Shown: positions 36,894-37,290 of the stretch, one piece after another
Position numbering within the stretch: the first letter of the stretch is position 1
Layout: the number at the start of each line of letters is the position of its first letter
From: Shigella phage sb1
Reading direction: 5' to 3' (one strand)
DNA: 64,000 nucleotides
Sequence record: PQ666539
Translations under genes and position numbers: made by a program
Notes under the pieces: model-generated
Seen by the model: only the letters and a program-made list of their open reading frames with translations
What the model was told of the DNA's origin: nothing
The model's database searches: none

Positions 36894-37290
36894 TATAAAT
36901 TCTCTTTTAAATGAAAATGCAGGACTTATTGGCATTGCCTGCGCAAGCCCTTAAGGGGAACATAGGTTTTGAATATTTACCGACAGGATAACCATAAACC
37001 TCGTCAACATACCTTATAGCTCTTATCTGTTGCACACCGTTAGCTTAAAGGTTCCGGGTTCGATTTCTCGAGGATAAGATATATACTGATGGATATATAG
37101 GCCTTGAGGCGTACTCCCGATTGGCCATCACCTCGGGGTAGCATGCACTTGCCGCTATAAGAATAACATTCAAGAGGTACACCATAAAACTGCCTGGGTC
37201 TTAAAACTATAATGATTCGCAAATCATTAATCAGAAAGTTCGATGGCTCCTCGATTTTAGCTCACACTAAGGCAGTTAATCTCCAATAAA

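Follow-up and report, generated by a model that had tools for sequence, protein, structure and literature searches.

What occupies the non-coding DNA between rIII and gene 30.9 is the question raised by the stretch of Shigella phage sb1 analysed here (sequence record PQ666539; 64,000 nucleotides in full, hereafter the window). The region has its best match in Escherichia phage vB_EcoM_NBG2 (Tequatrovirus, 98.5% identity); the window is DNA of a T4-like phage, and every gene around the locus lies on the minus strand (gp31, rIII and gp30.9, followed by 30.8, 30.7 and 30.6). A first-pass annotation had reported here a region of 355 bp without open reading frame (ORF), at 36936-37290, with fragments resembling a transfer RNA (tRNA), which might be a structured small RNA, a degraded tRNA, or the promoter and leader of the downstream gene, which encodes the basic protein gp30.9. 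Because gp30.9 starts at 36893 and not at 36935, the gap really covers 36894-37290 (397 bp). It contains no conserved ORF; mechanical ORFs of 42-60 amino acids are present, some of them annotated by depositors, and none of these is conserved. The spacing between the two genes is 245 bp in T4, and the comparison with T4 that had been suggested turned out to be informative: the T4 interval lacks the element described below, and the window has about 150 additional bases in the middle of the gap.

Comparative analysis indicates that positions 37013-37161 encode a structured RNA of 149 nt on the minus strand, in the same sense as rIII and 30.9, and we consider it very probable that this RNA is functional. 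The suggestion of a structured small RNA is strongly supported in this respect, on the strand opposite to the one that had been read.

Covariation, strand and conservation of the element

We gathered 26-27 distinct sequences related to the element from IMG/VR, metagenomes and GenBank phages, aligned them and tested the structure listed in Table 1. In alignment A7, 93.6% of the 1142 cells correspond to standard pairs, compared with 27-43% when the 3' partners are slid by one to three columns. Changes on both sides are observed in 31 of the 44 pairs (23 of 36 if the outer helix P1 is set aside), and the covariation score reaches 0.463 vs 0.045-0.090 in the slid controls, a value attained by none of 500 shuffles. 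The core without P1 gives the same outcome on MAFFT and model-based alignments; over all these alignments, pairing amounts to 93.6-95.9%, with 25-48% in the slid controls. RNAalifold, run independently, recovered the same helices and added an invariant GGC/GCC pairing; these bases are unchanged in all 26 sequences, so that this pairing is beyond the reach of a covariation test. Most of the unpaired cells in P2 come from five Pseudotevenvirus-type rows that the automatic alignments place out of register by one; when the sequences themselves are inspected, the P2 of this type pairs perfectly (GUUUAUCGAU / AUCGA-A-UAAAC).

The sequence of P1 differs in nearly every lineage and nevertheless pairs in all of them, with both sides changed in eight of eight pairs (e.g., CAAACAGC / GCUGUUUG in PKM.Lu.22.1, AAUUGUAG / CUACGAUU in GAP161, UAGUAG / CUACUA in K41P2 and AUAUUAC / GUAGUAU in EcS1). 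Pairing in register averages 6.7 of 8 positions, vs 2.6-3.7 in slid registers. The maintenance of this helix despite its free sequence indicates that the RNA closes on itself whatever its flanks.

The covariance model R1, built from the family, assigns 107-166 bits to its members, whereas the best chance score is 18 bits in 869 kb of unrelated viral contigs, each sharing a 14-18-nt pattern match with the element. R1 detects one copy in the window (161.9 bits at 37019-37155), to which the P1 arms were added from separate arm-pairing analyses.

Standard pairs account for 95.9% of cells on the minus strand and for 88.8% on the plus strand, the difference being due to 60 G-U cells that turn into A-C on the plus strand. 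Together with the GNRA loops of the P5 hairpin, these G-U pairs point to an RNA transcribed from the minus strand. The inverted repeat TCTTATC (37021-37027) / GATAAGA (37073-37079) is present at these positions and encloses the T-arm-like string GGTTCCGGGTTCGATTTC. Taken alone, such a repeat is weak evidence, and it gains significance only through being P4, a member of a set of seven helices that covary. The second GTTCGAT is located at 37238-37244, one base away from the reported 37239-37245, and its recurrence is not above chance (three copies in the window vs 8.2 expected).

A tRNA remnant or tRNA-like fragment, read on the plus strand, would account for GGGTTCGATTT inside the 7-bp inverted repeat. 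The letters of the supposed T-loop are, however, the reverse complement of the P5 stem with its GAAA loop, and the whole 'T-arm' is that of the P5 hairpin and the 5' strand of P6. In relatives, GTTCGA becomes GTCCGA, GTCTGA, GTCAGA or CCATTT, with compensating changes on the P5 partner strand. The T-arm reading is rejected because the TTCGA letters are not conserved and vary as the paired P5 stem of the minus strand. The earlier caution in not calling a tRNA was well placed: ARAGORN detects no tRNA gene in the whole window, and no Rfam tRNA or transfer-messenger RNA model matches at gathering or E-value thresholds.

The T4 species 1 and 2 RNAs (rnaC and rnaD) are comparable to the element: T-even phages encode them on the gene strand, they are structured and non-coding, with a length of about 120-140 nt, and their function has been obscure for decades. 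Unlike the element, they lie within the tRNA cluster, and rnaC has a true T-arm (CCGGGUUCGAAUCCCGG). No relationship between them was detected: with filters off, the best R1 score in the T4 region 69000-75000 is 9.7 bits, outside both rnaC and rnaD. Pairing is also poorer on the plus strand, and a tRNA remnant, which the covariation pattern refutes, is extremely improbable.

A second conventional reading is a small protein-coding gene, corresponding to a 'hypothetical protein' of 60 or 41 amino acids, or a structure at the DNA level, such as an origin or a cruciform. Mechanical ORFs do exist and are annotated in U115 and Roth17, and DNA could adopt the inverted repeats as well. None of the frames, though, stays free of stops throughout the family, and almost every member has stops in all six; member lengths vary between 134 and 146 nt by steps that are not multiples of three, and substitutions are compensatory in stems instead of falling at synonymous positions. 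That the structure is one of RNA, as opposed to duplex DNA, is favoured by the 60 G-U cells, by the asymmetry between strands and by the GNRA loops. We regard these coding and DNA-level readings as very improbable; like the tRNA remnant, they are close to excluded. The 'hypothetical protein' annotations overlapping the element are artefacts. Such coding sequences were noted at 1642-1824 in L001 and at 1504-1629 and 1637-1753 in L002 (U115_218; Roth17 XNO92794 and XNO92795), and they are not conserved.

Conservation of the element contrasts with that of its surroundings. The core (37020-37154) is 94-96% identical to the sequence found at the same rIII-30.9 site in Klebsiella, Enterobacter and Citrobacter phages; the identity falls to about 85% in Serratia phages and in a single phage that its depositors assign to Aeromonas. 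In these same phages, the non-coding flanks do not align and the rIII proteins are 67-73% identical to that of the window. The core is more conserved than the neighbouring proteins, which argues, at the sequence level, that the RNA is under selection.

The element corresponds to no described RNA family. At gathering thresholds, none of the 4227 models of Rfam 15 (including riboswitches, ribozymes, small RNAs and group I/II introns) matches the window; no match inside the gap, element included, was obtained at E ≤ 10, and eight further diverse members gave nothing over the element at E ≤ 5. The Rfam scan proposed in the first-pass annotation thus yielded no match, while the conservation in related phages that it had named is found. 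A search of full-text literature, including for the core sequence itself, retrieved no description of this RNA, in a coverage that is incomplete and leaves room for an earlier description elsewhere. The element belongs to an RNA family outside Rfam 15 and without description in the searchable literature.

Architecture of the fold

The centre of the predicted fold is a perfect four-way junction, since no unpaired bases separate P1, GGC/GCC, P3 and P4; its arms are P1, the GGC/GCC pairing continued by an internal loop and P2, P3, and P4 (Table 1). The internal loop of the P2 arm is asymmetric and almost invariant (AAGKGCAU / CUNAWG). P4 carries a three-way junction with the GNRA hairpin P5 and with P6, a hairpin with an invariant 15-nt loop.

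Compensatory changes are found along the whole structure. In P2, CCCG/CGGG is replaced by CUCU/AGAG and UAC/GUA by CAC/GUG; its apical stem is GGY-GAUG-GCC, or UGGA...UCCA in Pseudotevenvirus, and is lost in L015 and L125, which keep the rest of the fold. P3 occurs as UAUAUA/UAUAUA, UAUACA/UGUAUA, UAUUCA/UGAAUA and UACACA/UGUGUA, and P4 as CCGUG/CACGG and UCUGU/GCAGA in Pseudotevenvirus-type members. The P5 stem changes from UCGA/UCGA to CCGA/UCGG, CUGA/UCAG and CAGA/UCUG around a loop that is GAAA or GUAA in most members. P6 shows C-G to U-A in the Pseudotevenvirus type and A-U to U-A in L125.

An all-against-all analysis of column covariation for tertiary pairs was too noisy with two subfamilies, and the bases available for loop-loop or tertiary contacts are invariant, so that covariation cannot probe such contacts. 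A pseudoknot between the GGCC of the P2 loop and that of J2/3 was dropped, the P2-loop GGCC being better read as a local extension of P2. Likenesses of P2 to helix 27 of 16S ribosomal RNA and of P4 to the SAM-I P1 were discarded because the letters covary away.

Table 1. Positions of the RNA element, its predicted parts and neighbouring features (window coordinates unless a contig is named)
Feature	Position	Strand	Sequence and remarks
Whole cassette	37013-37161	minus	149 nt, from P1 5' arm to P1 3' arm; RNA 5' to 3' runs from 37161 down to 37013
P1 5' arm (outer closing helix)	37154-37161	minus	CUUAUAGC; 8 nt, 100% complementary to 37013-37020
GGC	37151-37153	minus	invariant; predicted pair with GCC 37100-37102, extending P1 into the P2 arm (RNAalifold columns 10-12 / 64-66)
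Internal loop, 5' side	37143-37150	minus	AAG(U/G)GCAU; one variable position across family members
P2	37109-37142	minus	long hairpin with conserved bulged A and apical GGY-GAUG-GCC stem-loop; six pairs changed on both sides
Internal loop, 3' side	37103-37108	minus	CUCAAG (family CUNA[A/U]G in alignments)
GCC	37100-37102	minus	invariant; predicted partner of GGC 37151-37153 (RNAalifold)
P3	37080-37099	minus	hairpin UAUAUAU-CCAUCA-GUAUAUA; four pairs changed on both sides, 96-97% of cells pair
P4 5' arm	37073-37079	minus	UCUUAUC (plus-strand GATAAGA); 6 of 7 pairs changed on both sides
P5	37060-37071	minus	hairpin UCGA-GAAA-UCGA, GNRA tetraloop; 4 of 4 pairs changed on both sides, 99-100% of cells pair
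P6	37034-37059	minus	5-bp stem, bulged U, conserved 15-nt loop GAACCUUUAAGCUAA; C-G to U-A and A-U to U-A changes
Junction strand, P6 to P4	37028-37033	minus	GCAACA; GCAAC invariant in all members
P4 3' arm	37021-37027	minus	GAUAAGA (plus-strand TCTTATC); pairs with 37073-37079
P1 3' arm	37013-37020	minus	GCUAUAAG; partner of 37154-37161
gp31	37666-38001	minus	
rIII	37291-37539	minus	
gp30.9 (basic protein)	start 36893	minus	58 amino acids; as annotated in T4, LZ9, GiZh and PP01
motif2	37255-37285	minus	just 3' of the rIII stop; diverged copy
motif2, other copies	L002 ~1645-1680; L184 1648-1680; L191 1556-1586; L237 ~293-330		

Distribution, contexts and mobility

The element is carried by 406 phage records, at full length in 395 of them, and is single-copy wherever it is found; JS98, vB_EcoM_NBG2 and Klebsiella phage JD18 are among the carriers. 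It occurs in three genomic contexts, always downstream of a gene on the same strand. The first is the interval between rIII and 30.9 of many Tevenvirinae-type phages infecting Escherichia, Shigella, Yersinia, Salmonella, Klebsiella, Enterobacter, Citrobacter, Serratia and Edwardsiella. In the second, found in Pseudotevenvirus and Slopekvirus-type phages (K41P2, GAP161, Olmo and JC221), it is located downstream of uvsY.-2, at the junction with the convergent uvsW.1, with no same-strand gene downstream. The third is that of the 76-kb Grimontviridae phage PKM.Lu.22.1, where the element lies between a hypothetical gene and a terminator, which is followed by a sigma-factor gene.

Presence is patchy: 14 of the 39 rIII loci in IMG/VR carry the element, rIII loci 51-63% identical to the query lack it, and looser patterns recovered the same ~20 contigs in IMG/VR and no more distant relatives. 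Only 179 records have the element within the Tequatrovirus-type intergenic region. The Tequatrovirus site itself exists in several states: filled in the window, occupied by an apparently unrelated 45-nt filler in T4 (about 9 of 20 bases alike with the element, of which it could be a remnant), empty in GiZh (TTGAATGT|GAATGATGACG), and reduced by a further deletion in PP01. A similar pair of 76-kb phages exists in Grimontviridae, in which PKM.Hi.22.6 has flanks 98% identical to those of PKM.Lu.22.1 and lacks about 155 nt corresponding to P1 and the core. The intrinsic terminator of the PKM.Lu.22.1 context is already present at the empty site of PKM.Hi.22.6. The empty and filled alleles differ by P1 plus core, so that the fold in its entirety, P1 included, acts as a cassette that can be transferred. 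The window's phage and GiZh, and likewise PKM.Lu.22.1 and PKM.Hi.22.6, provide natural near-matched comparisons.

Searches for a host origin were negative: apart from two chance 30-nt matches, nothing like the element turned up in 5,426 complete E. coli genomes or among PLSDB plasmids, and pattern scans of 185,579 species genomes gave only one chance match, in Leptolyngbya, without the helices.

Few viruses have been studied as closely as T4-type phages, and many of those carrying the element are candidates for phage therapy against E. coli, Shigella, Klebsiella and Enterobacter; it is unexpected that a seven-helix RNA of this size should be unannotated, or misannotated as 'hypothetical protein', in about 400 phage genomes. 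The covariance model can now be used for annotating the element and removing spurious ORFs.

A second short conserved element, motif2, was noticed in these regions. It consists of a hairpin, whose loop is GAUNNGCU, and of NAGUGCRR after it (in the Grimontviridae phages, AGGTGATTCGCTACCTTAAGTGCGGCTTGAA). Over about 31 nt, Mosigvirus-type T4-like phages, the Grimontviridae phages and E. coli phages of 75-76 kb share 90-97% identity, and most of motif2 is present in about 100 records. Motif2 adjoins the insertion point of the element, upstream in Klebsiella phages and downstream in PKM.Lu.22.1 and JC221, and the empty site of PKM.Hi.22.6 already has it. A landing pad for recombination, a regulatory site and a small RNA motif are all conceivable roles for motif2.

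Possible functions of the RNA

The invariant loops of the fold imply a specific molecular partner. In the reading that we favour, the element would be transcribed with, or just after, its upstream gene, and the RNA would fold independently of its flanks and work in trans as a compact molecule. Its invariant loops would bind a component of the Enterobacterales host or a small molecule, rather than a phage protein, in an accessory role that may be that of a decoy, inhibitor or sponge in host takeover or counter-defence.

Several observations are compatible with such steps. In T4, rIII is served by early, middle and late promoters (PMC9409239), so that a co-oriented element located just downstream would be transcribed through much of the infection unless termination occurs first. 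The three contexts share no upstream or downstream genes, and one has no downstream gene, which makes a trans RNA more economical than a leader or a riboswitch. Two unrelated phage families with Enterobacterales hosts in common have retained the RNA, which makes a component of the host, or a small molecule, a likelier partner than a protein of the phage. Its on/off presence among near-identical phages, in hyperplastic regions, is the pattern expected of host-range or defence-evasion genes and suggests that the benefit is probably conditional, like that of host-range or counter-defence functions.

Taken as a whole, with the mechanism included, an accessory trans-acting RNA binding a host factor or small ligand is the best explanation that we can offer from these comparisons, plausible and falling just short of probable; the binding model considered for itself is more tentative. 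That the element represents a new class, i.e. a mobile phage-borne functional RNA with a riboswitch- or ribozyme-grade fold and no dedicated protein gene, spread as a 150-nt cassette between unrelated phage families, is on the unlikely side. Such an RNA could be, for instance, a sponge or decoy against a host immune protein or a signalling nucleotide, or a new self-cleaving ribozyme.

The favoured model is of the type of the phage-borne RNA decoys (pseudo-ToxI antitoxin RNA, RNA anti-CRISPRs and replacement tRNAs), which are, like the element, accessory, non-coding, patchy and horizontally exchanged. However, decoys copy a recognisable host or defence RNA, and the element has no similar sequence in E. 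coli genomes, in PLSDB or, by pattern search, in species genomes; unlike decoys, it holds no repeat or tRNA structure.

A cis-acting role is another possibility. The first-pass annotation had proposed, as one option, a promoter and leader for the basic protein, a main role that is difficult to reconcile with T4, GiZh and PP01, which keep 30.9 and its leader without the element, and with the occurrence of the element without 30.9 downstream. A promoter scan found no promoter-like site inside or adjoining the element, and -10-like boxes seen by eye overlap P1 inconsistently, in some lineages only.

A more elaborate version would be a riboswitch-like sensor, in which the aptamer would recognise a metabolite or ion, with P1 formation governing whether the downstream gene is read through or translated (30.9, or the sigma-factor gene in PKM.Lu.22.1). 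The element has what is typical of aptamers, a P1 free in sequence with invariant junction and loop bases, and most of its copies are in the 5' region of 30.9. As a lead only, there are likenesses to riboswitch aptamers and small ribozymes organised around four-way junctions (SAM-I, the yybP-ykoY Mn2+ riboswitch and the hairpin ribozyme): a length of 100-150 nt, a closing P1 of free sequence, a junction that is perfect or nearly so, and invariance of the bases in the internal loops and at the junction. Rfam gave no match to these families in nine family members at permissive thresholds up to E ≤ 10, at which no other riboswitch matched either. Unlike these riboswitches, the element has neither a conserved downstream gene, its three contexts being unrelated, nor a conserved expression platform, the sequence after P1 differing in every lineage. 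Pseudotevenvirus and Slopekvirus-type phages have a convergent gene next to the element, which leaves nothing downstream to control; relatives lacking the element have an unchanged 30.9 and leader, and the PKM terminator is found at the empty site too. A riboswitch appears rather improbable on this balance.

A new self-cleaving or otherwise catalytic RNA that processes a polycistronic transcript would also fit the perfect four-way junction, two arms of which contain conserved internal loops and would dock, by analogy, as in the hairpin ribozyme. The unpaired bases are very highly conserved, and no particular gene accompanies the element, a situation often met with in small phage ribozymes. Against this, no Rfam ribozyme family matches, no candidate cleavage site could be derived, and 149 nt exceeds the size of most small self-cleavers. 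We consider a ribozyme decidedly improbable.

The constant position downstream of a same-strand gene would suit a passive module of the 3' untranslated region (messenger RNA stabiliser, processing or insulator signal, or recombination module) shuffled together with PeSLs and without specific partner. PeSLs, elements made of a short stem-loop and an early promoter, mediate modular shuffling (PMC4122927, PMC2839356). Like the element, they occupy hyperplastic regions and are inserted, deleted or replaced between close relatives, and PeSL-like hairpins (GUACCC-loop-GGGGCUUG) and other shuffled modules flank the element. They are, however, present in many copies per genome, whereas the element is a single-copy sequence of 149 nt with seven helices and no promoter consensus. 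A stable hairpin would suffice for a passive role, which leaves unexplained the seven helices, the near-invariant loops and the 95% identity across genera with unalignable flanks. Such a module seems quite improbable.

Several points count against the favoured reading of a functional trans-acting RNA. The fold energy of the single sequence is ordinary (z = -0.38), so that the structural evidence is comparative and not thermodynamic. A large part of the changes counted goes back to inheritance within two subfamilies, and the breadth is narrow, being confined to Enterobacterales phages and the single record assigned to Aeromonas by its depositors. About 90% of carriers have the element upstream of gene 30.9, where a cis role is possible, and the order found in PKM.Lu.22.1 (element, intrinsic terminator, gene) also fits a riboswitch. 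Complementarity to the invariant loops elsewhere in the window is limited to 8-10-nt matches, as expected by chance, and the counter-defence idea has only the patchy distribution and the location behind it.

Neighbouring non-coding features

The longest ORF at the gp30.9 locus (72 amino acids, 36717-36935, start at 36935) overextends the protein, whose 58-amino-acid form begins MAKQAKAKK...; gp30.9 has no Pfam match. Its 5' leader (36894-36960, minus strand) contains a palindrome, CCCCTTAAGGG, and a GCAGGCAATGCC...CCTGC stem, invariant in four Tequatroviruses, which may be a translational operator for 30.9. Weak Rfam matches at 36678-36761 (Atu_C8, E = 4e-4; Phe_leader) correspond to the intrinsic terminator after 30.9 and not to a small RNA; its stem is at 36692-36713, followed by a T run, and the GiZh annotation places an early terminator at the same site.

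On the other side of the element, an 8-bp long-range inverted repeat (37188-37195 / 37270-37277, minus strand) encloses a perfect hairpin, TAATGATT-TGCG-AATCATTA (37210-37229), followed by TAGTTTT. This structure resembles a terminator after rIII; it is kept in T4 and GiZh and deleted in PP01. The promoter and terminator assignments around the element are uncertain.

Downstream of the element, at about 36960-37005 on the minus strand, a GACGAGG...CCTGTC hairpin followed by GGTAAATATTCAAAACC is common to all Tequatroviruses. The TAAATA core of this module resembles the T4 late-promoter box. The same hairpin and GTAAAAC/TTAAATA module is found upstream of the element in Klebsiella and Serratia phages (L002, L004 and L185), so that the order of non-coding modules is shuffled between genera.

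Finally, a conserved non-coding block of about 170 nt, absent from GAP161, is located downstream of the element in Slopekvirus K41P2 (L186, ~1595-1770) and in Yersinia phage JC221 (L191, ~1615-1790). It reads GGCGUAMUCUUUUGCG...GGUGAUUGAUAA...AGYCAGAAUAGUACC... and exhibits apparent compensatory changes; it may correspond to another structured RNA.

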